Assembly: GCA_964357505.1 (NCBI GenBank) | Contig: CAYHLN010000002.1 | Location: 1-42,498 of the forward strand | Direction: 5' to 3' | Length of the DNA stretch: 42,498 nucleotides | From: Candidatus Woesearchaeota archaeon | GTDB taxonomy: Archaea; Nanobdellota; Nanobdellia; Pacearchaeales; GW2011-AR1 | Shown: in pieces, positions 6,650 through 42,498 of the stretch | How the letters are laid out: the number at the start of each line of letters is the position of its first letter | How positions within the stretch are numbered: the first letter of the stretch is position 1 | Position numbers and translations under genes: made by a program | The notes under the pieces: model-generated | What the model saw: the letters and a program-made list of their open reading frames with translations, nothing else | Databases searched by the model: none | What the model was told of the DNA's origin: nothing

Positions 6650-9600
6650 TTATTCAGATTTTTTCCCCGCACCTTTACGTACTAAGGGGCCAGTCACCTT
6701 TACCAACAGTCCAGGTAATCCAGTTCCGACAGGCACTGGCTGGTTGAGCATGATATTTTCAATAACGGATTCAAGTTCATCTTTTCTGCCTTGAATGGTT
6801 GCATTGATAAATTGTTTATCAGGCGTTTCGAATGCAGCTCGAGCAAAGATACTTGATTTATCAGAGACAATACCCATTCTGGTTACTCCCTTTACAACAC
6901 CAGATGAAGTCATCGCATCGGCAATCAAATCAAGATGTCTGATGTTAATTTCCAATCCCTGTCCTTCAAGAACTTTCTTAATTTCATTCACAATGGTCTG
7001 TCGTGCAGCTTCAATACCAAGCACTTCAGCAGTCTCATGAATATCGTTTGAACTTATTCGATCCCTATCAGCGCCTTTTATCAACAGCGTATCTTTGATA
7101 TTGCTCCCAGAGGTAATAACAACGAATTCCCTGCCTCTATTTGCAACAACAACTTGATTAACGCCTTTGACGCCAGAGACAATTGCTTTCTTGATTTTCT
7201 CTTTAAGCTTGTAAATTTCCTTGAAGCCAAGATCTTGTACTTGAAGCACGATAGAGTTCTCGCGTGCCTTGCAGACGAATCCCTTGTCATTAAGACGATC
7301 AGCGATAGTCTGAGCACCAGCGTGTACGGTGCGCAGCGCATTGCTATCAAGCTCAATCTCAATTTTCTTACCGCCAAAGTCAATGCGTACTTCTCGCGTA
7401 ATTTCCTCAAGCATAACTTCTTTGATTTTCTCAGCAATCACTCGTGCATCCTTTTCATTGTTATACTCCTTATCCAAGTAAACAGTCATCTGAGGTGTTG
7501 AGGGCTTCTTACGAGCGTCAAAGATTTCAATCAAACGAGGTAGTCCAAGCGTAACCTGCATTTCTGCAACTCCCGCAGAGTGGAATGTTCTCAGAACCAT
7601 CTGTGTGGATGCTTCTCCAAAGGATTGTGCAGTTACGACTCCGACGCATTCACCTGGAGGGACTTTCATACCAAGATGCAATCCTGAAACATCGACTCCA
7701 TCTCCGCCATACAAGAATTGAACAATATTTCCAGAGGCATCGCGTACGGTCTCATCATATTCAACTTTCAAGTCTTGTAATGCGCTTACTAAACGGCGAT
7801 ACAAGTAACCAGACTTTGGCGTCCTCAGAGCAGTATCCATCAGAGCGTCTCTTCCAGTAATTGCTCCAAAGAAGAACTCGGTCGGTTTAAGCCCATCAAT
7901 AAAAGAAGATTTGATAAATCCACGAGCTGCCGGTTTCAAATCTCCACGCTCGAAGAATGAGAGGGTACGATTCGTGTATCCAAAGTTGATTCGATGGTCC
8001 CATAGGATTTGCTGACCAACGCAACAGCCAATTTGAGTAATATTTAGTAAGCTTCCTGCAGCGCCTGCAGAGATCATCTTATTGACGTTGCTATCTACAG
8101 GGAAGTTCGTTCGAACAATCTTACTTGCTTCTGTTCTTACCTCGTTTAACGTCTGAGCAATACGCACTTCACGTGATTCTTCCAAGGTCTTTCCTGGAAT
8201 CAACATCAGCTTACCAGAAGCAGCTTCACGGATAATTTCATCTGTTTTATGCTCAGCATCTTTAATGACCTGGTTAGTTAGCTCCTTCATTTTAGCCGGA
8301 ACGTTAAGATCCTGCAATGAGAGTGTGTATCCTTTGCGAGAAAGGTACCAGGTACCAAGTGCAAAAGCGCGTCTAATAGTCTCCAATACTTCTTGGCGTG
8401 AAACTTGCTTATCAAGCGTCTTGATAAGTTCGCCTTCTTCTACTCCAATAGTCGAGCTTCCAATCGAATCAGTAGGAATTTTAACATCAACGCCCTTTGG
8501 CAAGATGTGTGCGAAGATTTCTTTACCATCAATTTCCTTGCCCTTTAAAACCGCGCTCACACCAGAGCTGAAAAGCAATTGGTCAGCATCAGCCTTGCTC
8601 AATGACGACTTACTCAGCAAGTAAACGCCTGTAATTCCATCTGCAATACATCCTACAAGATTAGTATTGTTCTTGGAAGAAATAATGTTGTTCTTCACGT
8701 CCAGCAGCACGGTAGCTTCAGCGCGTGCTTCTTCTGTCTGAGGTGAGTGAATGTTTACTTCATCTCCGTCGAAGTCAGCGTTGTAAGGGAATGCAACTGC
8801 AGGATGGATTCTAAATGTTCTATCAGGCAATACACGCACGTAGTGAGCCATCAGGCTTTGCTTGTGAAGAGAAGGGTGACGATTGAAGAGTACAACATCT
8901 CCATCGCGCAAGTGTCGTTCAACCTTATAGCCTGGCTGAATTTCATTACACAAATCTTCCTTCAGCTCTTCAGCAATACGTTTTTTCTTTCCATCAGGGC
9001 GCACAACATAGTTAGCTCCGGGGTATTTCTCGCCCTGCCTAATAACATCCTTAAGGCTTTCCAAATTAGCAGTAGTCACACTCTCAGAAACAGTAATAAT
9101 ACGAGCAATATCAACAGGCACACCAATTTCATTGATAGCAAGGAACGGATCAGGTGACACGACAGTTCTTCCAGAGAAGTTAACACGCTTTCCGGCAAGG
9201 TTCTTTCTAATACGACCTTCCTTACCCTTAATACGTTCAGTGATCGTTTTTAGCGGCTGTCCTGAGCGATGACGTGCAGGCGGAATGCGAGTGATAGAGT
9301 TATCAAAATAGGTCGTCGTATGGTACTGCAATAAGTCCCATAGATCTTCAATAATAACTTCTGGTGCTCCCGCATTCAAGTTCTCCCAGAGTCGCTGATT
9401 AGCGCGGATAATATCTGAAAGCTTGTGTGTCAAGTCATCTTCGGAACGCTCTCCCGACTCAAGCGTGATCGATGGTCGAACGTTAACGCTCGGCACAATA
9501 AGCTGAGAAAGAATAGCTGATTCAGGTCTACAGGTACTTGGATTTACTCCAACCTTCTTCATCTGCTCGTCTGTAATCTTGAGCAACATCTCACGAATTT

Positions 9601-10090
9601 CAGTAGGGAAGATGCGTCGCTTACCCAATAAGAACTGACTTGGCTTTTCTAAGCGTACTCGCTCTTGCTCTTCATTACAATGAGGACACTTTTTCTTATC
9701 GCGTGCCTTCTTTGCGCGTTCAAGAGGGCTAAACGTTGCAGCCTTCTCATCTGAAAGCAAGATCTTGCCACAATGGTGACAGAAGCTTCTCAAAAAGAGT
9801 TCAATCAAAGGAATATATTTGATATGTAAAACAGGACGAGCAAACTCAATCATTCCAGGGTAACCGGGACAATCCTTCATCGTAGCTCCATCAGTTCTAC
9901 ATCGAACGCCAGGATCAATAGCGCCCAATCGCAGATCCATCAAACCACCATCAACCGGGAAGCCATCAACGTCATACAGTTCAGGTGTGACAATCTTTGC
10001 CACGCTTAACTTCTTGATAATCTCGGGGCTAACTAGGGCGAACTTCAGCGCTTTTACCTTCTTCTTGATTACGTCGTCGATGTTATTCAT
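6650..10090 (-). CDS. rpoA: DNA-directed RNA polymerase subunit A, unsplit A'+A'' fusion (1146 aa)
   Basis: N-terminal Zn motifs are present (CHHCGK...CPHC). The catalytic NADFDGDEVN motif and the bridge-helix region GRDALMDTALRTPKSGYLYRRL are present. The A''-type trigger-loop region TAQSFGEASTQMVLRTFHSAGV...TLGLPRLIEIFDARK follows in the same frame. The junction is around 7655-7690. Confidence 0.95.
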   Translation of the reverse strand: MNNIDDVIKKKVKALKFALVSPEIIKKLSVAKIVTPELYDVDGFPVDGGLMDLRLGAIDPGVRCRTDGATMKDCPGYPGMIEFARPVLHIKYIPLIELFLRSFCHHCGKILLSDEKAATFSPLERAKKARDKKKCPHCNEEQERVRLEKPSQFLLGKRRIFPTEIREMLLKITDEQMKKVGVNPSTCRPESAILSQLIVPSVNVRPSITLESGERSEDDLTHKLSDIIRANQRLWENLNAGAPEVIIEDLWDLLQYHTTTYFDNSITRIPPARHRSGQPLKTITERIKGKEGRIRKNLAGKRVNFSGRTVVSPDPFLAINEIGVPVDIARIITVSESVTTANLESLKDVIRQGEKYPGANYVVRPDGKKKRIAEELKEDLCNEIQPGYKVERHLRDGDVVLFNRHPSLHKQSLMAHYVRVLPDRTFRIHPAVAFPYNADFDGDEVNIHSPQTEEARAEATVLLDVKNNIISSKNNTNLVGCIADGITGVYLLSKSSLSKADADQLLFSSGVSAVLKGKEIDGKEIFAHILPKGVDVKIPTDSIGSSTIGVEEGELIKTLDKQVSRQEVLETIRRAFALGTWYLSRKGYTLSLQDLNVPAKMKELTNQVIKDAEHKTDEIIREAASGKLMLIPGKTLEESREVRIAQTLNEVRTEASKIVRTNFPVDSNVNKMISAGAAGSLLNITQIGCCVGQQILWDHRINFGYTNRTLSFFERGDLKPAARGFIKSSFIDGLKPTEFFFGAITGRDALMDTALRTPKSGYLYRRLVSALQDLKVEYDETVRDASGNIVQFLYGGDGVDVSGLHLGMKVPPGECVGVVTAQSFGEASTQMVLRTFHSAGVAEMQVTLGLPRLIEIFDARKKPSTPQMTVYLDKEYNNEKDARVIAEKIKEVMLEEITREVRIDFGGKKIEIELDSNALRTVHAGAQTIADRLNDKGFVCKARENSIVLQVQDLGFKEIYKLKEKIKKAIVSGVKGVNQVVVANRGREFVVITSGSNIKDTLLIKGADRDRISSNDIHETAEVLGIEAARQTIVNEIKKVLEGQGLEINIRHLDLIADAMTSSGVVKGVTRMGIVSDKSSIFARAAFETPDKQFINATIQGRKDELESVIENIMLNQPVPVGTGLPGLLVKVTGPLVRKGAGKKSE

Positions 10091-15501: not shown

Positions 15502-15546
15502 GAAAATATTCTAAATGGGTGCTTTATAAGCATATCGCAAGAAAAA

Positions 15547-15621
15547 TGACCCCGATGGGATTTGAACCCACGACACCTGGATTAAAAGTCCAGTACTCTA
15601 ACCGGGCTGAGCTACGGGGCC
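15547..15621 (-). tRNA. tRNA-Lys (anticodon UUU)
   Basis: The minus strand reads GGCCCCG-TA-GCTC-AGCCCGGTTA-GAGT-A-CTGGA-CTTTTAA-TCCAG-GTGTC-GTGGG-TTCAAAT-CCCAT-CGGGGTC-A. This folds as a full cloverleaf of 75 nt. No CCA is encoded and a T5 tract follows. Confidence 0.93.
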
Positions 15622-15646
15622 ATACGCAAATCAGCGCGAGATGATT

Positions 15647-29988: not shown

Positions 29989-30732
29989 ATGAGAAAAGAC
30001 ACTCTCCAAACAGCCTTAATAATCATATGCATTTCTATTTTTATTTTTGACTTTGCGTTCTATAATAATCAAGGATACATCGATTCCTTACACAAGTCTC
30101 TAAAAATAGTAATATCACTAGCTTTAGCGGTCATTCTACCACTCACTATTTTTAAAAATTTTATTTGGAGAATTTTATCATGCATACTAATTCTCATTCC
30201 GCTAACAATATTTGGAATGTGGTGGACTAATTATCCAGACGCGGGGCCTCTTGTATTTATTTTTTATTACGCACCATTAGTTTTTATTCTAGTCATTTTA
30301 GGGCATTTTACACTTAAATTATTGGAAAATTCTCCTAAACCAAAAAAATGGGCCATCGTTCTAATAATTGTTTTTATAGGCTTATTTATTTTAGCAGTCT
30401 TGAATATCTCAAGCGGTCTTGCAGACCTAGAAAGAGCCGAACTCTCTGAAAGACAAAAAGAATGTAATAGCTATATGAGTTCAGAAGAATTATCAAGTAA
30501 TTGCGCAAGACTAAAAGAATTAAATTTAGAAGAATACTATTTTAAGCTTGCTTGTGGCGAAAACTATCCTGACAAAGAATTTTGGAGGGTCTTTGCTTTT
30601 GATGATAACGGAACAGGCCATGAGGTAAGTCGTCCAAGAAACAACAATTTAGAAGAAAAAGAACAATGTTTTTCTAAAGTCAGAGAAAGATTCTCTTTTT
30701 TCAGACCAAGAGATTATATCTATAGTTATTAA
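29989..30732 (+). CDS. Hypothetical polytopic membrane protein (247 aa) with a Cys-containing soluble C-domain, carried on an AT-rich cassette
   Basis: It has about 6 hydrophobic segments. Its own TTTTTATAG box lies about 24 nt upstream. Two hand-counted 60-nt lines give 27-30% G+C, against 45% for one lemA line. Confidence 0.7.
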   Translation: MRKDTLQTALIIICISIFIFDFAFYNNQGYIDSLHKSLKIVISLALAVILPLTIFKNFIWRILSCILILIPLTIFGMWWTNYPDAGPLVFIFYYAPLVFILVILGHFTLKLLENSPKPKKWAIVLIIVFIGLFILAVLNISSGLADLERAELSERQKECNSYMSSEELSSNCARLKELNLEEYYFKLACGENYPDKEFWRVFAFDDNGTGHEVSRPRNNNLEEKEQCFSKVRERFSFFRPRDYIYSY

Positions 30733-30777
30733 TTGTTTATGATTGAATATTATATTTTCAACCAATAATTAGAAAAA

Positions 30778-30797
30778 GCAGTGCCAAAAGTTAGCTT
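30778..30797 (+). repeat. Direct repeat copy 2 (gcagtgccaaaagttagctt), orphan lemA 3'-end remnant
   Basis: It is identical to 29924-29943. It also reads AVPKVSF-stop (ttc taa versus ttt tga), but an in-frame stop lies 4 codons upstream. Confidence 0.9.
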
Positions 30798-30893
30798 CTA
30801 ATGAAACATGCTGTAGTTGCCATTATCTCAAAGCACAAATACGCTCACTAAAGCTCTAGCCTATGATACGGATTTTCGTTGAGCAGTACATCT

Positions 30894-31346
30894 TCATTTA
30901 AGTTGCTTTTCTTCAAAAAGACCCGTTTTTAATCCGTAAATCGTATGTACAATTCGGGTAATAATAAGCGCCGTGAGATAAGAAAAAATAAATGAGGCAG
31001 CACGTTCAAACCCAAAAAGAACCATCAAAGAGTAATCAGTAGAAGTTGCAAGAATGAAAAACAGGAATGCCAAGAAAACGCGGTGTCCCTGAAGAAGCCC
31101 GTAATCTCTGAAAAAAAGTTGCAATTGGCTATTCCGATAATTTGCATACCAATGCAGACCCCAAAATAAAAGACCGTCAATAAGCGCATCAATAAAAAAT
31201 GCAGAAAGTAAAATAAAAGCTATTGAGTGGTTCATACGACTTACCACCATAACAGGATATGCTGCAAGAAGGGTCGCAACCGCACTAGCAAGGAAAATAT
31301 TAAAATTAATATTGATGATTCTTTTTTTATAGAGTAAAGATACCAT
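30894..31346 (-). CDS. Hypothetical membrane protein (150 aa, about 4 TM)
   Basis: It is a hydrophobic ORF 6 nt downstream of the rhodanese gene. Confidence 0.6.
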   Translation of the reverse strand: MVSLLYKKRIININFNIFLASAVATLLAAYPVMVVSRMNHSIAFILLSAFFIDALIDGLLFWGLHWYANYRNSQLQLFFRDYGLLQGHRVFLAFLFFILATSTDYSLMVLFGFERAASFIFSYLTALIITRIVHTIYGLKTGLFEEKQLK

Positions 31347-38586: not shown

Positions 38587-39714
38587 ATGTCCAAGGAAAA
38601 AGGTGCGGTGACGCCCTGGTCTGTTTCAGGAGCAGTTGATTATGACCGGCTCATTACTGAATTTGGTGTTGAAAAGCTCACACCCTTACTCAACTCCAAA
38701 CTCAAATCAATAGCAAAAGAAGACCATTTTATGCTTTCTCGTCACGTCTTCTTTGCACATCGCGATCTCGCCTGGCTCTTGAGTGAGTATGAAAAAGGCA
38801 ATAAGTTCTTCTTGTACACGGGCCGCGCTCCTTCAGGAAAGATACACCTCGGCCATATTGTTCCTTGGGTTTTCACTCAGTGGCTCCAACAACAATTAGG
38901 TGTTGACCTCTGGTTCCAATTCCCTGATGAAGAAAAGTTCTTGTTCAAACGTGAACTAGAGTTTGAGCAGGTGCAAGAATACCTCAAAGATAACATGCTT
39001 GACGTCATTGCTCTCGGTTTTAATCCTGCAAAAACATATTTTCTTATTGACACTCAGCATGCCTCGTTAATGTACAAGCATGCATGTACTGTAGCAAAAA
39101 AAATTACATTCTCAATGGTGAAATCTTCCTTTGGTATGACAGAAAGCTCAAACATCGGTTCAATCTTTTACACGGCAATGCAAACCGTTCCCACATTCCT
39201 ACCTTCCGTGCTTAAAGGCAAGAACATACCTTGCCTGATTCCGCATGCAATAGACCAAGATCCACACTTCAGGCTTACCCGTGATATTTTACCCAAGCTT
39301 GGATATTACAAACCCGCTTCAATCCAATGTTCATTCTTGCCGCCGTTAATGGGCGACGAAGGCAAAATGTCTTCCTCAGAAGAAAATGGAGCCATCTTCC
39401 TTTCCGATAGCCCTCAAGACGTAAAACGTAAAATCAACAAGTATGCCTTTTCTGGCGGTCGCGATACGCTCGAAGAGCACCGTAAGTATGGAGGCAATCC
39501 AGACATCGATATTTCATTCATCTACCTCAAGATGTTACTTGAACCAGATAATAAAAAATTAGAAAAAATAGAACGCGACTATCGTTCCGGCAAGCTTCTA
39601 TCGGGTGAACTGAAAGCAATTACCATAGATAAAATCAACACGTTCCTGAAAGAACACCAAGCAAGCAAGAAAAAAGCTACTCCACAACTCAACAAGTTTA
39701 TCTTCAAAAATTAA
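38587..39714 (+). CDS. trpS: Tryptophanyl-tRNA synthetase (archaeal/eukaryotic type)
   Basis: The class I signatures are GKIHLGH (the HIGH motif) and GKMSSS (the KMSKS motif). It is 375 aa. Confidence 0.88.
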   Translation: MSKEKGAVTPWSVSGAVDYDRLITEFGVEKLTPLLNSKLKSIAKEDHFMLSRHVFFAHRDLAWLLSEYEKGNKFFLYTGRAPSGKIHLGHIVPWVFTQWLQQQLGVDLWFQFPDEEKFLFKRELEFEQVQEYLKDNMLDVIALGFNPAKTYFLIDTQHASLMYKHACTVAKKITFSMVKSSFGMTESSNIGSIFYTAMQTVPTFLPSVLKGKNIPCLIPHAIDQDPHFRLTRDILPKLGYYKPASIQCSFLPPLMGDEGKMSSSEENGAIFLSDSPQDVKRKINKYAFSGGRDTLEEHRKYGGNPDIDISFIYLKMLLEPDNKKLEKIERDYRSGKLLSGELKAITIDKINTFLKEHQASKKKATPQLNKFIFKN

Positions 39715-40073
39715 GCTGCTCTGTTACAAACGCGGTCAACATACTCAGTCTGCAATCGTGATTGAGCATAACGTCTCACCGTGGGATTCCCAGAAATAAG
39801 AGGTGCATAACCGCGCCCATCTTGTGCAATGGCTGCGCCTGCAGAACGTACAACACTTTTGAGAGTACCCATAGCCAGATCAGTAGTACCATAGAGAGCA
39901 ACTCGAACAACACCATTGTGTGGTTTTCCATGCAACTCGCCTTGCCTCTCGGTTCCATCCGCATAAATAACAAAATGAGCATCCTTGCCTGCGTCACTCA
40001 GCCTGCCAGCGAGCATAGCCATTAGGCCTCTTGCTTCGCGCACATCAACATGAATTCCTCGTTTGTTTGTCAT
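39711..40073 (-). CDS. Hypothetical 120-aa soluble protein, divergent from the three-gene operon
   Basis: The ATG at 40073 (MTNKRGIHVDV...) has a CTTTATATAG box about 25 nt upstream. The 5' extension of the track ORF runs through AT-rich promoter sequence. The gene looks more GC-rich than the adjacent operon by eye. Confidence 0.55.
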   Translation of the reverse strand: MTNKRGIHVDVREARGLMAMLAGRLSDAGKDAHFVIYADGTERQGELHGKPHNGVVRVALYGTTDLAMGTLKSVVRSAGAAIAQDGRGYAPLISGNPTVRRYAQSRLQTEYVDRVCNRAA

Positions 40074-40093
40074 ACTTTTTATCATTCCTACAA

Positions 40094-40103
40094 CTATATA
40101 AAG
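40094..40103 (-). promoter_or_regulatory. TATA box for the 39711-40073 gene
   Basis: The minus strand reads CTTTATATAG. Its centre is about 25 nt from the ATG at 40073. Confidence 0.45.
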
Positions 40104-40146
40104 CTTTCCATTAATGTTATTATTAAGTAGTAACATAATAAGAAGG

Positions 40147-40156
40147 TTTAAATATA
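40147..40156 (+). promoter_or_regulatory. TATA box for the three-gene operon
   Basis: The sequence is TTTAAATATA. Its centre is about 24-25 nt from the ATG at 40176. Confidence 0.45.
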
Positions 40157-40175
40157 CAAAAATAGCTACCTCATC

Positions 40176-40373
40176 ATGGACTATGAAGACCCTAGAAGCA
40201 TAGCGCAAGAACACGACCAATTATATTGGCAAATGGTAGGAAAAAACAGTTCGCTATTAAGCGGAAAAGGCGAACTTGAAGACTTGCTTGATGAAAGGAA
40301 TAAATATCAATTTATCCAGCATATTCACCAATTTCAAATGCCCATGAATCCGTCTCTATTTTGGAGGCAGTAG
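40176..40373 (+). CDS. Hypothetical small acidic protein Q1 (65 aa)
   Basis: It is the leaderless-type first gene of the operon. Its stop lies 4 nt before the Q2 ATG. Confidence 0.5.
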   Translation: MDYEDPRSIAQEHDQLYWQMVGKNSSLLSGKGELEDLLDERNKYQFIQHIHQFQMPMNPSLFWRQ

Positions 40374-40377
40374 CACA

Positions 40378-40815
40378 ATGACCGAACAAACACTTCGTAT
40401 TTACTTAGAACAAAGATTAGGAATAAAAGCCAATGATGCAGAAGAAACTAAAATAAGTGAGCTACTTTCAAGAATGTGTGAGAATGAAGCGGAAGCTGGA
40501 AATCATCTTGGTGCAAAACACTTAGGAAATATTACTCTAATTTTAGGATCCGAAGAGCAAAGACGTAAGACCTTAGAAATATTTGAAATCCCAATAGATC
40601 GCAAATATGCCATTGCTGATTTAGTCCGCGAATACATGATAGAACAAGAATATGACACATTTGAAACAATAGCTGGAGAAATTAGCCCCAATTGTAGATG
40701 GGATGAATATTTTAACGACCAAGGAGAAAGAAGAAGAGTTGAATTTATACGTAATTTTAATCTACTAAAAGCAGATAATCTAAAAATTCAATTATTTGAA
40801 ATGGAGAAAGAATGA
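40378..40815 (+). CDS. Hypothetical acidic soluble protein Q2 (145 aa)
   Basis: An SD GGAGG lies about 12 nt upstream. The N-terminus MTEQTLRIYLEQRLGIKA resembles that of Q3. Confidence 0.65.
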   Translation: MTEQTLRIYLEQRLGIKANDAEETKISELLSRMCENEAEAGNHLGAKHLGNITLILGSEEQRRKTLEIFEIPIDRKYAIADLVREYMIEQEYDTFETIAGEISPNCRWDEYFNDQGERRRVEFIRNFNLLKADNLKIQLFEMEKE

Positions 40816-41210
40816 CACAAACACTAGAAGACTATCTTTCAAGAATTAAAGGGCTCAATGTAAAAGCAAAAAACATTTCAGATGAGTTAGATATAGTCAG
40901 AACCGTAAATAAAACAAGAAAAAGAGAAGGCCTTCCTCAAGGACCAAGAGATTCTTTTATGACTCAGGAAGATATGACTATTTCGGGTAGCGAATTTATG
41001 ATTGGGTTTCTCAAGAATTATGTTACTAATTATATGAATTCGGTAGGATACAACAAGGCAAAAGACGATGAAGATTCTAGAGACAATGAAATATGGTATA
41101 GTCCAATGGACACTAGAAATAGACCAAAATTAATAACTATCCTAGAAACCTCTGAAACAGAAAGAGACCTCTGTCTCGTAGAATATCTAGGAAGTCATGC
41201 TCCTAAATAA
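40812..41210 (+). CDS. Hypothetical soluble protein Q3 (132 aa), possible distant paralogue of Q2
   Basis: It overlaps Q2 by ATGA. An SD-like GGAGAAAG lies upstream. The N-terminus is MTQTLEDYLSRIKGLNVKA. Confidence 0.65.
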   Translation: MTQTLEDYLSRIKGLNVKAKNISDELDIVRTVNKTRKREGLPQGPRDSFMTQEDMTISGSEFMIGFLKNYVTNYMNSVGYNKAKDDEDSRDNEIWYSPMDTRNRPKLITILETSETERDLCLVEYLGSHAPK

Positions 41211-41254
41211 AATAGCAACAAACATTCTTAAAAACCAGCATATATAATCAAGAT

Positions 41255-41390
41255 ATGAAAAAAAGAGCTTAATTTCTCGCAAGAAACAAGAAAAAATATC
41301 GCACAATCTCTGAAAGAAATAAGATTAGGAAAAACCGAATCCTTAGAAGCTATCAAAATAAAACTTAATTCAAAAAAAAAGATAATTTAG
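41255..41390 (+). pseudogene. Frameshifted small ORF (antitoxin-like C-terminal pattern) broken at an A7 homopolymer
   Basis: The ATG at 41255 plus the A7 run gives MKKRA-stop. The +1 frame continues as ELNFSQETRKNIAQSLKEIRLGKTESLEAIKIKLNSKKKII-stop. One A fewer would give a 44-aa ORF. Confidence 0.35.
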
Positions 41391-41437
41391 TCAATAACTT
41401 TCAAAAACCTTTTATACCCTATCTGCATTACTGAACC

Positions 41438-42498
41438 ATGCGAACACTATCCTTGCATTGCGACTATATCAAGTTTAAAGCCGAAAAAAAAGCAGTAAAA
41501 GATGTTCAAGAATTAAGCGAGAAAGACAAAAAAGAGCACGAAATGAAAGAGTGTCTAGTTGTTTTAACAAGCGTGGAAAAAGGCGATGGTGATCAAGAGC
41601 TAGCACAAATGCTAGCAGCGGTTGAGAAACACGCCTCCGAGGTTAAGGCAAAGAACATTGTCGTTTACCCGTACGCACACCTCTCTTCCAATCTTGCACC
41701 GCCAAAGATCGCGGCAGAGATGCTTGAGCAAGCCGAAGCCGCTCTCAGCAAGAAATTCAACACAATGCGCGCGCCATTTGGCTACTATAAAACATTCGAG
41801 CTCAAGACAAAAGGCCATCCGCTTTCGGAGCTGAGCAAGAGCTTTGGTGAAATGCAAGCAAATCCAAGCAAGACGCAACAAAAAACACGACCATCGGGCG
41901 GAGGTAAGTTCGTTCTAGATCGGCGCAATCTTTCACCCTACGACCATCGTATTCTAGGAGAAGACTTAGGCTTATTCACCTTTGCTGAAGAAGTGGGCCC
42001 TGGCTTGCCATTATGGTTGCCGGCAGGGGAATCGATCAGGCACGTACTAACCGAATACATGCGCACGATAGAAGAGAAATACGACTACCAATACGTCACC
42101 ACCCCACACATTACTAAAGGAGAACTCTATGAAAAAACAGGCCATATCCCTTATTATGTAGATTCAATGTATTCGCCGATAGACATTGAAGGTCAGCCCT
42201 ACTATCTGAGGCCAATGAACTGCCCACATCACCATATGATTTTTAACAAAATGGTAAAAAGTTATCGTGATCTTCCATTACGCCTTGCAGAAGCCGGAAC
42301 GGTCTATAGAAATGAACTTTCCGGAGTAACCTACGGTTTAATCCGAGTTCGTGGGATGACGATAAACGATGCACATTTGTACGTTGCTCCGACACAACTG
42401 AAAGAAGAGTTCCTAAAAGTGATTGAAATGTTCGAAGAAGTGTATAAAACGATAGGCATCAAGAACTATTGGTTTAGACTTTCGCTCCCTGATTTTAA
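41438..42498 (+). CDS. thrS: Threonyl-tRNA synthetase with the archaea-specific N-terminal editing domain (partial, continues beyond the window)
   Basis: The translation reads MRTLSLHCDYIKFKA...IVVYPYAHLSSNLAPP...RAPFGYYKTFELKTKGHPLSELS (archaeal editing domain). It continues with the class II core ...YYLRPMNCPHHHMIF...YRNELSG...GLIRVRGMTINDAHLY. A TTTTATAC box lies about 24 nt upstream. Confidence 0.9.
   Translation, partial: MRTLSLHCDYIKFKAEKKAVKDVQELSEKDKKEHEMKECLVVLTSVEKGDGDQELAQMLAAVEKHASEVKAKNIVVYPYAHLSSNLAPPKIAAEMLEQAEAALSKKFNTMRAPFGYYKTFELKTKGHPLSELSKSFGEMQANPSKTQQKTRPSGGGKFVLDRRNLSPYDHRILGEDLGLFTFAEEVGPGLPLWLPAGESIRHVLTEYMRTIEEKYDYQYVTTPHITKGELYEKTGHIPYYVDSMYSPIDIEGQPYYLRPMNCPHHHMIFNKMVKSYRDLPLRLAEAGTVYRNELSGVTYGLIRVRGMTINDAHLYVAPTQLKEEFLKVIEMFEEVYKTIGIKNYWFRLSLPDF

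Follow-up and report, generated by a model that had tools for sequence, protein, structure and literature searches.

Layout of the trpS–thrS interval

The window analysed here, a 42,498-nt stretch in its entirety, belongs to a DPANN 'Nanoarchaeota' MAG of Hainich groundwater origin and carries two aminoacyl-tRNA synthetase genes towards its right end. The left-hand gene, trpS (38587–39714, plus strand; Pfam tRNA-synt_1b, E = 2.9e-27), shares 63–75% identity with its counterparts in many Woese-/Pacearchaeota-type DPANN genomes in a genome scan. The right-hand gene, thrS, starts at 41438 on the plus strand and is cut by the window end at 42498. It has its own TATA box, TTTTATA (41410–41416), and a promoter alignment showed this box to be conserved in all lineages. 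The archaeal editing domain of ThrS is orthologous to that of the relatives, and sliding-window identity showed the catalytic core to be of a different type, with the best PDB matches being 1nyq for the window and 4hwt for L003, a co-resident relative.

Three plus-strand genes lie between the synthetase genes: Q1 (40176–40373, 65 aa), Q2 (40378–40815, 145 aa) and Q3 (40812–41210, 132 aa). A first-pass annotation had described them as a tightly coupled operon of acidic soluble proteins, and the description holds. The three reading frames are real and of the sizes claimed, a 4-nt gap (CACA) lies between Q1 and Q2, Q2 and Q3 overlap by ATGA, Shine–Dalgarno motifs precede Q2 (GGAGG) and Q3 (GGAG), and a promoter element, TTTAAATATA (40147–40156), lies 19 nt 5' of the Q1 ATG. 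The predicted pI values are 5.1, 4.8 and 5.3 for Q1, Q2 and Q3 respectively, the net charge is −10 for Q2 and −3 for Q3, and none of the three contains a single 19-residue hydrophobic window, as expected for soluble proteins without transmembrane segments. The AT-richness noted by eye was equally borne out, with GC of 0.33–0.34 in Q2 and Q3 versus 0.42–0.44 in trpS and thrS. Q2 and Q3 have the lowest GC3 of the window (0.19 and 0.25), where the backbone ranges from 0.33 to 0.53; their composition is foreign to the window. The whole locus is reproduced at 99.9–100% identity in two independent replicate assemblies.

A fourth gene (39711–40073, minus strand; GC 0.49, and so more GC-rich, as had been thought) encodes a 120-aa basic protein of pI 9.9 and diverges from Q1 across a 102-nt spacer (40074–40175), in which the TATA box previously assigned to it was found. 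An alignment across eight lineages shows invariant blocks in the spacer, whose elements are a minus-strand TATA/BRE element, CTATATAAAGCTTTC (40094–40108), a palindrome, ATGTTATTA-N5-TAGTAACAT (40114–40136), and the plus-strand TATA element already mentioned. The spacer is 100–102 nt long in five lineages, and the ATG and TATA box of the divergent gene are conserved among relatives. Within the window the spacer motif occurs as a single exact copy, with one-mismatch copies at chance level. Distant relatives without a Q2-family gene (L068, L073 and L038) also carry a palindrome of related type, so the gene for its cognate factor must lie elsewhere.

The 120-aa protein is the orthologue of a 137-aa gene product in L087 and L003 (shuffle z = 8.8 against the L087 protein), and its ∼30% identity to the L003 protein, at a dN/dS of ∼0.68, marks it as very fast-evolving. 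In L007, L009, L010 and L011 the small gene in this position, which precedes a peptidoglycan hydrolase gene, is unrelated to it or too distant for a relationship to be detected.

Between Q3 and the thrS promoter there is a window-specific AT-rich insert of ∼190 nt (41211–41400); the corresponding interval is only 34–55 nt in relatives. It contains what had been taken for a frameshifted, antitoxin-like mini-ORF. The frameshift is real: a 44-codon frame (ATG at 41255, stop at 41388–41390) is broken at an A7 run (41258–41264) that is also present in an independent assembly. The antitoxin-like character was not sustained, the frame having no Pfam match and no relative in any of the compared loci.

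A variable but structured neighbourhood

Among 24 related species-level genomes the trpS–thrS gap spans anything between 3 bp, where it is empty, and 5.2 kb, and its contents differ widely, in agreement with the earlier proposal of a variable, accessory-type spot. A recently inserted, self-contained island is nevertheless not what the comparison reveals, because at least five lineages have, in this position, the same arrangement of bidirectional promoter, divergent small gene and Q2-family gene next to thrS. The synteny and gene content of L003, L087, L010 and L011 agree in this respect. Rightwards, the promoter drives one to four small genes that end at the thrS promoter; in the window, as in L003, L087, L010, L011, L088 and L089, a Q2-family gene oriented like thrS ends just 5' of that promoter.

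Nor is the window's cluster an intact three-gene module. In the fullest known version, that of L087, the order is a 139-aa gene, a 521-aa gene and two Q2-family copies (Q2a and Q2b). Q1 had been counted as a complete gene, yet it is an N-terminal fragment of the 139-aa protein, matching its first ∼59 residues (tblastn against L087 789–977: 54% identity over 63 columns, E = 1.9e-19; first 20 residues identical) and missing its hydrophobic and basic C-terminal part. Of the 521-aa gene, L003 retains a truncated form of 262 aa, and in the window it is deleted.

At least 10 of the 24 relatives encode peptidoglycan hydrolases in this locus, belonging to five Pfam families (SLT, GH24 lysozyme, Hydrolase_2, Amidase_3 and M15); the window has none. 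Peptidoglycan hydrolases are reported to be especially prominent and diverse in Nanoarchaeota (PMC12352652), and the orthologous locus of the relatives resembles such loci in that it encodes hydrolases, expressed from the same divergent promoter architecture. The window differs from them, its minus-strand unit being reduced to the 120-aa basic protein and Q1–Q3 having no similarity to hydrolases or known immunity proteins.

No integrase or recombinase ORF was found within 39711–41437, no tRNA gene borders the locus (the sole tRNA of the window is at 15546–15622), and no att-like direct repeats beyond chance flank the island borders; the locus is therefore not a classical integrative island. 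IMG/VR scans for the 521-aa protein and the Q2 family returned zero relatives. The locus is thus probably not a mobile island of defence or toxin genes. It has more in common with a genomic islet or variable region: conserved flanks (trpS and thrS), an interval that can be empty or as long as 5.2 kb, an atypical composition, truncated and deleted genes, and phylogenetic discordance indicating homologous recombination. It departs from such regions in that the bidirectional promoter and palindrome persist throughout the clade, and in that the Q2 family is tied to the thrS-proximal position.

The Q2 family and probable exchange of the Q2–Q3 cassette

We define the Q2 family as acidic proteins of ∼140–152 aa encoded immediately 5' of thrS in a sub-clade of DPANN archaea. 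A search of 5.8 billion protein clusters (1.84 billion representatives) recovered only ∼7 clusters, all of them beside thrS, and the only homologues found for Q2 were P0002 (78% identity), P0005 (56%) and P0006–P0009; the L010 and L087_B proteins score z = 9–14. The Q2 clade aligns with the distant members at an hhalign probability of 95.5% (E = 1.4e-8), the best-conserved part being an N-terminal helical segment, M-x3-TLRxYLEExLGI. A JGI metagenome scan for the family returned the same Hainich contigs only. Q3 has a sole homologue, P0004 of L003, at 73% identity. Q1–Q3 is a tiny, fast-evolving orphan cluster confined to a few groundwater DPANN archaea.

The near-alike N-termini of Q2 and Q3 had been read as a sign of tandem duplication. 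Taken by themselves they are not significant (BLASTP E = 0.87, shuffle z = 0.3), and an HMM alignment of Q2 against Q3 gave an hhalign probability of 2–3%. Duplication has nevertheless occurred in the family: the two L087 copies are clear paralogues (z = 9.3, hhalign 95.5%), homologous to each other and to Q2 (shuffle z = 9–15), and one of them, L087_B, stands at the position equivalent to Q3. Q3 itself scores z = 3.7–4.0 against L087_A and L087_B, and the family HMM matches it with 11.1 bits in two collinear segments, a score equalled by 1 of 1000 shuffles. The resemblance between Q2 and Q3 thus appears to gain modest support, solely via the wider family, and Q3 is probably, at best, a strongly diverged tandem paralogue of Q2.

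Both genes are under purifying selection, with dN/dS of 0.17 for Q2 and 0.19 for Q3. Their synonymous divergence is low: pS is 0.49 and 0.51, against composition-matched saturation values of 0.68 and 0.73 (0 of 500 simulations), and the same-codon fraction is 0.65–0.71, against 0.35–0.49 in backbone genes. The trees, each of three taxa, are discordant, with L003 and L087 as sisters for the divergent gene and thrS, and the window and L003 as sisters for Q2. These comparisons point to a Q2–Q3 cassette that split from its counterpart in L003 more recently than the surrounding backbone did. Together, low synonymous divergence, the discordant tree and low GC3 suggest that Q2 and Q3 were exchanged by recombination with a co-resident relative. 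Part of the low synonymous divergence could come from synonymous-site selection in very AT-rich genes and not from transfer. The source was probably a lower-GC lineage, a direction judged solely from composition. Joint transfer of the whole block from the 3' part of trpS to the 5' part of thrS was considered and rejected, because synonymous sites have reached saturation in the trpS C-terminus and in the thrS editing domain but not in Q2 and Q3.

Possible functions of Q2 and Q3

Defence, toxin-immunity and regulatory roles had all been put forward for the cluster. Scans of all cluster proteins from four lineages with Pfam, NCBIfam, PHROGs and PADLOC gave nothing above noise; PADLOC, run on the cluster proteins of the window, L003, L087, L010 and L011, matched nothing but Q3, at chance level (E = 0.022). 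PDB sequence and profile searches were led by a PP2A HEAT repeat (E = 0.096) and HepT (E = 0.57). With PDB and viral contigs likewise negative, the defence and toxin-immunity proposals are without support. AF2 models of Q2 and Q3, built on two-sequence alignments, were unusable (pLDDT 41.5 and 45.8), and Foldseek of the low-confidence Q3 model against PDB returned no match with E ≤ 0.001. By eye, L087_B and the L010 protein show a G-x-Y-x2-AK-x5-AL pattern that brings a TPR or helical repeat to mind; the Pfam scans contained no TPR.

We consider it reasonably probable that the window carries a partly decayed, recombined local version of a clade-specific, fast-evolving trpS–thrS neighbourhood belonging to a sub-clade of groundwater DPANN archaea. 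A conserved bidirectional promoter with a central palindrome drives the small basic protein leftwards, together, in relatives, with a secreted peptidoglycan hydrolase. In the window only Q1 is left of the 139-aa gene, there is neither a 521-aa gene nor a hydrolase, and purifying selection maintains Q2 and Q3; the cassette would have been exchanged by homologous recombination, probably from a lower-GC lineage, and Q3 would stem from a second tandem copy of Q2. The ATGA overlap may ensure that Q2 and Q3 are made in fixed proportion. Judging solely by their coupled genes, paralogy and charge and by the lack of catalytic motifs, our best guess is that they form a soluble, acidic, non-enzymatic hetero-oligomer with a binding or adaptor role, presumably derived from a homo-oligomeric single-copy ancestor like that in L010 and L011, and are neither an enzyme, a toxin nor a regulator of their own promoter.

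Several features of the cassette would also suit a small, horizontally acquired conflict system (toxin–antitoxin, toxin-immunity, anti-phage or anti-defence) made up of Q2 and Q3, with Q1: small overlapping genes, foreign low GC3, recent exchange between co-resident lineages and a variable locus. Acidic proteins are typical of DNA mimics, which Q2 and Q3 resemble in charge, and in L003 the region a few kb downstream of thrS contains RHH-PIN and MNT-HEPN pairs. The similarity of Q3 to HepT chains is very weak and non-significant (E = 0.57–0.65); Q3 lacks the HEPN Rx4-6H motif, and its lone candidate His is not conserved in P0004. Two small overlapping genes of accessory-like composition are what Q2–Q3 shares with type II systems of the MNT-HepT kind. 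Unlike those, the pair lacks a toxin motif, and neither a DNA-binding nor a nucleotidyltransferase motif of an antitoxin is present (inspection by eye likewise showed no HEPN or MNT motif), and both proteins are acidic and probably paralogous, neither bearing a DNA-binding antitoxin signature. Toxin–antitoxin and defence genes are widespread and mobile. The Q2 family, unlike them, occupies a single chromosomal site in a few related genomes, with viral or other contexts not found, and its single-copy members in L010 and L011 mean that the pair is not obligatory. Together with the empty database scans for every cluster member in four lineages, this leads us to regard a conflict system as quite unlikely.

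The hydrolases of the relatives invite another explanation, that the Q2 family and the divergent basic protein belong functionally to a peptidoglycan-hydrolase unit across the shared promoter, the window's module being left over after hydrolase loss; Q2-family proteins might then act as a cytoplasmic chaperone, inhibitor, export adaptor or co-regulated factor for attacking bacteria. In L010, L011 and L088 the Q2-family gene indeed diverges, across a palindrome spacer of ∼100 nt, from a small gene followed by a hydrolase-type gene, and the number and diversity of hydrolases at the locus, and in Nanoarchaeota generally, fit such a unit. Most hydrolase loci nonetheless have no Q2-family gene (L007, L009, L038, L043, L066, L068 and L073), Q2 remains under purifying selection in the window, L003 and L087, none of which has a recognizable hydrolase, and the adjacency may merely reflect a common insertion-tolerant spot; we think this explanation unlikely. 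That Q2, Q3 or both might be a transcription regulator acting on the palindrome, or on thrS, is very unlikely. The family's N-terminal helical segment is its most conserved part, the conserved palindrome lies 40–60 nt upstream and the genes end at the thrS promoter. However, Q2 and Q3 have no HTH, RHH or wHTH profile match and are strongly acidic, the same kind of palindrome occurs in L068, L073 and L038, all without a Q2-family gene, and in every lineage thrS is preceded by a conserved TATA box of its own.

On the decayed-neighbourhood reading, what looked like a novel multi-protein island becomes something more ordinary, a lineage-restricted pair of orphan genes and a gene remnant at a recombination-prone, variable spot of a reduced DPANN genome, and the locus neatly illustrates in nature how genes are gained, truncated and deleted and how cassettes are exchanged among co-resident episymbiont populations. 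A bolder and improbable extension is that the trpS–thrS gap is a dedicated 'weapon slot', regulated by the bidirectional promoter and its palindromic operator, into which unrelated peptidoglycan hydrolases and small partner proteins, among them the 120-aa basic protein and the acidic Q2/Q3 family, are swapped repeatedly by recombination between co-occurring populations; in that case Q2 and Q3 would assist archaeal antibacterial activity or host interaction as accessory factors not known before. The conserved promoter/operator, which expresses hydrolases of five families in relatives, could aid the study of how DPANN antibacterial enzymes are regulated and diversify. For annotation, Q1 is best flagged as a fragment, and Q2 and Q3 as one small family.

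The coupled gene cluster between trpS and thrS

The genes lying between trpS (38587–39714, plus strand) and thrS (from 41438, plus strand) represent a clade-specific neighbourhood, here decayed and recombined, that is arranged around a conserved bidirectional promoter. On the plus strand are Q1 (40176–40373, 65 aa), Q2 (40378–40815, 145 aa) and Q3 (40812–41210, 132 aa); Q1 and Q2 are separated by 4 nt, Q2 overlaps Q3 by ATGA, and SD-type motifs precede Q2 (GGAGG) and Q3 (GGAG). An element, TTTAAATATA (40147–40156, plus strand), is found 19 nt ahead of the Q1 ATG. A 120-aa ORF with its own TATA box (39711–40073, minus strand) diverges from Q1 across a 102-nt spacer, and its stop codon overlaps that of trpS. 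Q2 and Q3 have a GC content of 0.33–0.34, compared with 0.49 for the divergent gene, and the lowest GC3 in the window (0.19 and 0.25, respectively; backbone genes, 0.33–0.53). Q1, Q2 and Q3 are acidic (pI 5.1, 4.8 and 5.3) and contain no hydrophobic segment, and the divergent gene product is basic (pI 9.9). The ORFs and their composition agree with the first-pass annotation, whose observations were largely correct and whose interpretation was partly so. The arrangement is not an assembly artefact, because it is reproduced in two independent replicate assemblies of the same groundwater sample, at 99.9–100% identity across all junctions. The source population is a DPANN ‘Nanoarchaeota archaeon’ from Hainich well H41.

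Q1, Q2, Q3 and the 120-aa protein gave zero matches in Pfam, NCBIfam, PHROGs and PADLOC, leaving the defence role proposed for Q1–Q3 without a counterpart in these databases, and PDB sequence and profile searches returned only noise. AF2 models of Q2 and Q3 built from two-sequence alignments were unusable (pLDDT 41.5 and 45.8), and a fold search with the Q3 model, its pLDDT too low to be usable, returned 0 matches at E ≤ 0.001. As had been noted for catalytic motifs, neither a catalytic nor a DNA-binding signature is present in Q2 or Q3.

Between Q3 and the thrS promoter is a window-specific, AT-rich insert of ∼190 nt (41211–41400). It contains a 44-codon frame (ATG at 41255, stop at 41390) with a +1 shift at an A7 run (41258–41264) that recurs identically in an independent assembly. 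This frame had been described as a frameshifted, antitoxin-like mini-ORF; the break at A7 is real, but the antitoxin assignment is without evidence, and a search for relatives and family matches of the mini-ORF returned none. The frame may be a dead mini-gene or prone to slippage.

Relatives of Q2 and Q3 and probable exchange of the cassette

We sought relatives of Q2 in 5.8 billion protein clusters by word-indexed search, in 1.84 billion representatives by a full HMMER scan, and with a profile seeded by the distant members, a metagenome scan and a viral-contig scan. Together these recovered only P0002, 78% identical to Q2 and encoded in the closest syntenic, co-resident relative (L003), P0005 and P0006, encoded by tandem genes of L087, P0007 in L010, and P0008 and P0009 in L011, L088 and L089. 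The Q2 clade aligned with the distant members at an hhalign probability of 95.5% (E = 1.4e-8), with shuffle z-scores of 9–15, and the two groups are genuinely homologous. Each Q2-family gene stops 34–55 nt ahead of the thrS ATG and lies on the same strand as thrS, which has its own conserved TATA box ∼25 nt 5′ of its ATG in all lineages. The Q2 family is thus tiny and tied to thrS. The sole Q3 homologue is P0004, also in L003.

Whether Q2 and Q3 arose by tandem duplication, as first suggested, depends on which comparison is made. Compared directly, the two proteins show no significant similarity: BLASTP gave E = 0.87, the proposed profile alignment by hhalign a probability of only 2–3%, and a shuffle test z = 0.3. 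The indirect evidence points the other way. The exact position of Q3 is occupied in L087 by a clear Q2 paralogue, likewise with an ATGA overlap, and Q3 compared with both L087 copies gave z = 3.7–4.0. Q3 also scores 11.1 bits on the six-member family HMM, a value reached by 1 of 1000 composition-matched shuffles, the match falling in two collinear segments, the N-terminus and a YM-x4-GY region. Q3 is likely, on these comparisons, to be a paralogue of Q2, though this is not proven.

Q2 and Q3 both encode proteins under purifying selection, as judged by dN/dS of 0.17 and 0.19, respectively, between the window and L003. Their synonymous divergence is low next to that of the backbone: pS is 0.49 and 0.51, respectively, where saturation simulated from the codon usage of Q2 and Q3 themselves would be 0.68 and 0.73; 0 of 500 simulations were as low as observed. 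Conserved residues use the same codon in 65–71% of cases in Q2 and Q3, and in 35–49% in LemA, the M48 peptidase, the thrS editing domain and the trpS C-terminus. Trees of the divergent gene and of thrS pair L003 with L087 as sisters (80–91% amino-acid identity); that of Q2 pairs the window with L003 (78%, with 56% for window–L087 and 52% for L003–L087) and is discordant with the other two. A Q3-type second gene is common to the window and L003 only, and the GC3 of the cassette is closer to that of the low-GC L003 lineage than to that of the window backbone. Transfer of the whole block is ruled out because trpS and thrS on either side are saturated at synonymous sites. The simplest reading is that the Q2–Q3 cassette was recently swapped between co-resident populations by homologous recombination.

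Our committed guess is that Q2 and Q3 would assemble into a soluble, non-enzymatic hetero-oligomer that serves in binding or as an adaptor, because they are translationally coupled, probably paralogous and strongly acidic, have single-copy relatives in L010 and L011, and lack catalytic and DNA-binding signatures.

The decayed operon, its conserved promoter and the trpS–thrS slot

The cluster is at its fullest in L087. Its minus strand carries a homologue of an L003 266-aa protein and then a 137-aa gene; a 102-nt spacer separates these from a plus-strand unit of a 139-aa gene, a 521-aa gene, and the tandem Q2-family genes Q2a and Q2b, followed by thrS. Q1 matches residues 1 to ∼59 of the 139-aa protein (54% overall, E = 1.9e-19; identical over the first 20 residues) and lacks its hydrophobic and basic C-terminal portion. 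The window has no copy of the 521-aa gene; in L003 that gene is cut to 262 aa and the 139-aa gene is lost as well. The divergent 120-aa protein and the 137-aa gene product are orthologues (z = 8.8), with only ∼30% identity and dN/dS of ∼0.68. Judged from these alignments, the window cluster is a reduced, decayed copy and Q1 a remnant. The 521-aa orphan protein (L087 1210–2775; L003 counterpart 9211–9999) has a weakly but concordantly methyltransferase-like N-terminus (PF20553, E = 0.17; 1vlm, E = 0.57) and, by eye in the translation, two C-terminal ∼45-aa repeats ending H(A/I)xMGTY(D/G)K.

Eight lineages conserve the spacer that separates the minus-strand unit from the plus-strand genes, with its two opposed TATA boxes (window promoter 40094–40156) and a central palindrome, in the window ATGTTATTA-N5-TAGTAACAT (40114–40136). 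A similar palindrome, GTAACTA...TAGTTAC, occurs in hydrolase–thrS spacers of distant relatives that have no Q2-family gene (L038, L068, L073 and L066), where the plus-side gene is thrS itself. For this reason the Q2 family is unlikely to be its cognate regulator, and the presence of the palindrome in distant relatives implies a putative dedicated one.

A trpS scan of species-representative genomes gave 80 loci. In 24 species thrS lies downstream of trpS in the same orientation, and the gap between them, from 3 bp to 5.2 kb long, is highly varied in content; the interval is thus variable among relatives. A peptidoglycan hydrolase gene convergent to trpS, often preceded by a small gene, is present at no fewer than 10 of these loci, and the hydrolases come from five unrelated Pfam families: SLT (L010, L018), Phage_lysozyme (L007, L038, L066, L068), Hydrolase_2 (L009, L043 and, weakly, L073), Amidase_3 (L035) and Peptidase_M15_3 (L077). 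In other species the gap is empty (3–176 bp), and the window slot (39711–41437) contains no peptidoglycan hydrolase. The slot resembles a site at which antibacterial enzymes are swapped. Peptidoglycan hydrolases are reported to be especially prominent and diverse in Nanoarchaeota (PMC12352652). Q2 and Q3 may be tied to the hydrolase arm of the promoter, but co-occurrence gives this no support.

The accessory island of the first-pass annotation thus survives in part: the spot is variable and the cassette compositionally foreign, but it is no self-contained mobile or defence module. We found no integrase, tRNA gene or border repeats at the interval, and no viral relatives. The cluster is a real but fairly ordinary set of orphan genes, and we regard the hydrolase swap site, the promoter with its palindrome and the mosaic aaRS genes as more interesting than Q1–Q3.

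Apparently mosaic aaRS genes and a second variable spot

The window ThrRS (41438–42498) looks chimeric. Its archaeal N-terminal editing domain (residues 1–130) is 78–87% identical to that of L003, and its catalytic core, from about residue 150, only 33–43%; the domain junction was confirmed by an independent assembly. The best PDB match of the core is Staphylococcus aureus ThrRS (1nyq, 184 bits). The L003 core matches the human and Escherichia coli type (217 and 186 bits), with only 125 bits for 1nyq.

The TrpRS proteins of the window (38587–39714) and the other relatives are mutually 72–77% identical, and that of L003 (trpS 6796–7905) is ∼42% identical to all of them; its last ∼90 residues are 80–90% identical to the window. 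This suggests that most of L003 trpS was replaced, with a breakpoint near the variable interval.

Between LemA and a rhodanese gene, the window carries two low-GC3 ORFs (29989–31346) of 247 aa (GC3 0.25) and 150 aa (GC3 0.30), where L003 has a single ORF of 124 aa, unrelated in size; these ORFs mark a second small variable spot, the DNA being otherwise syntenic.
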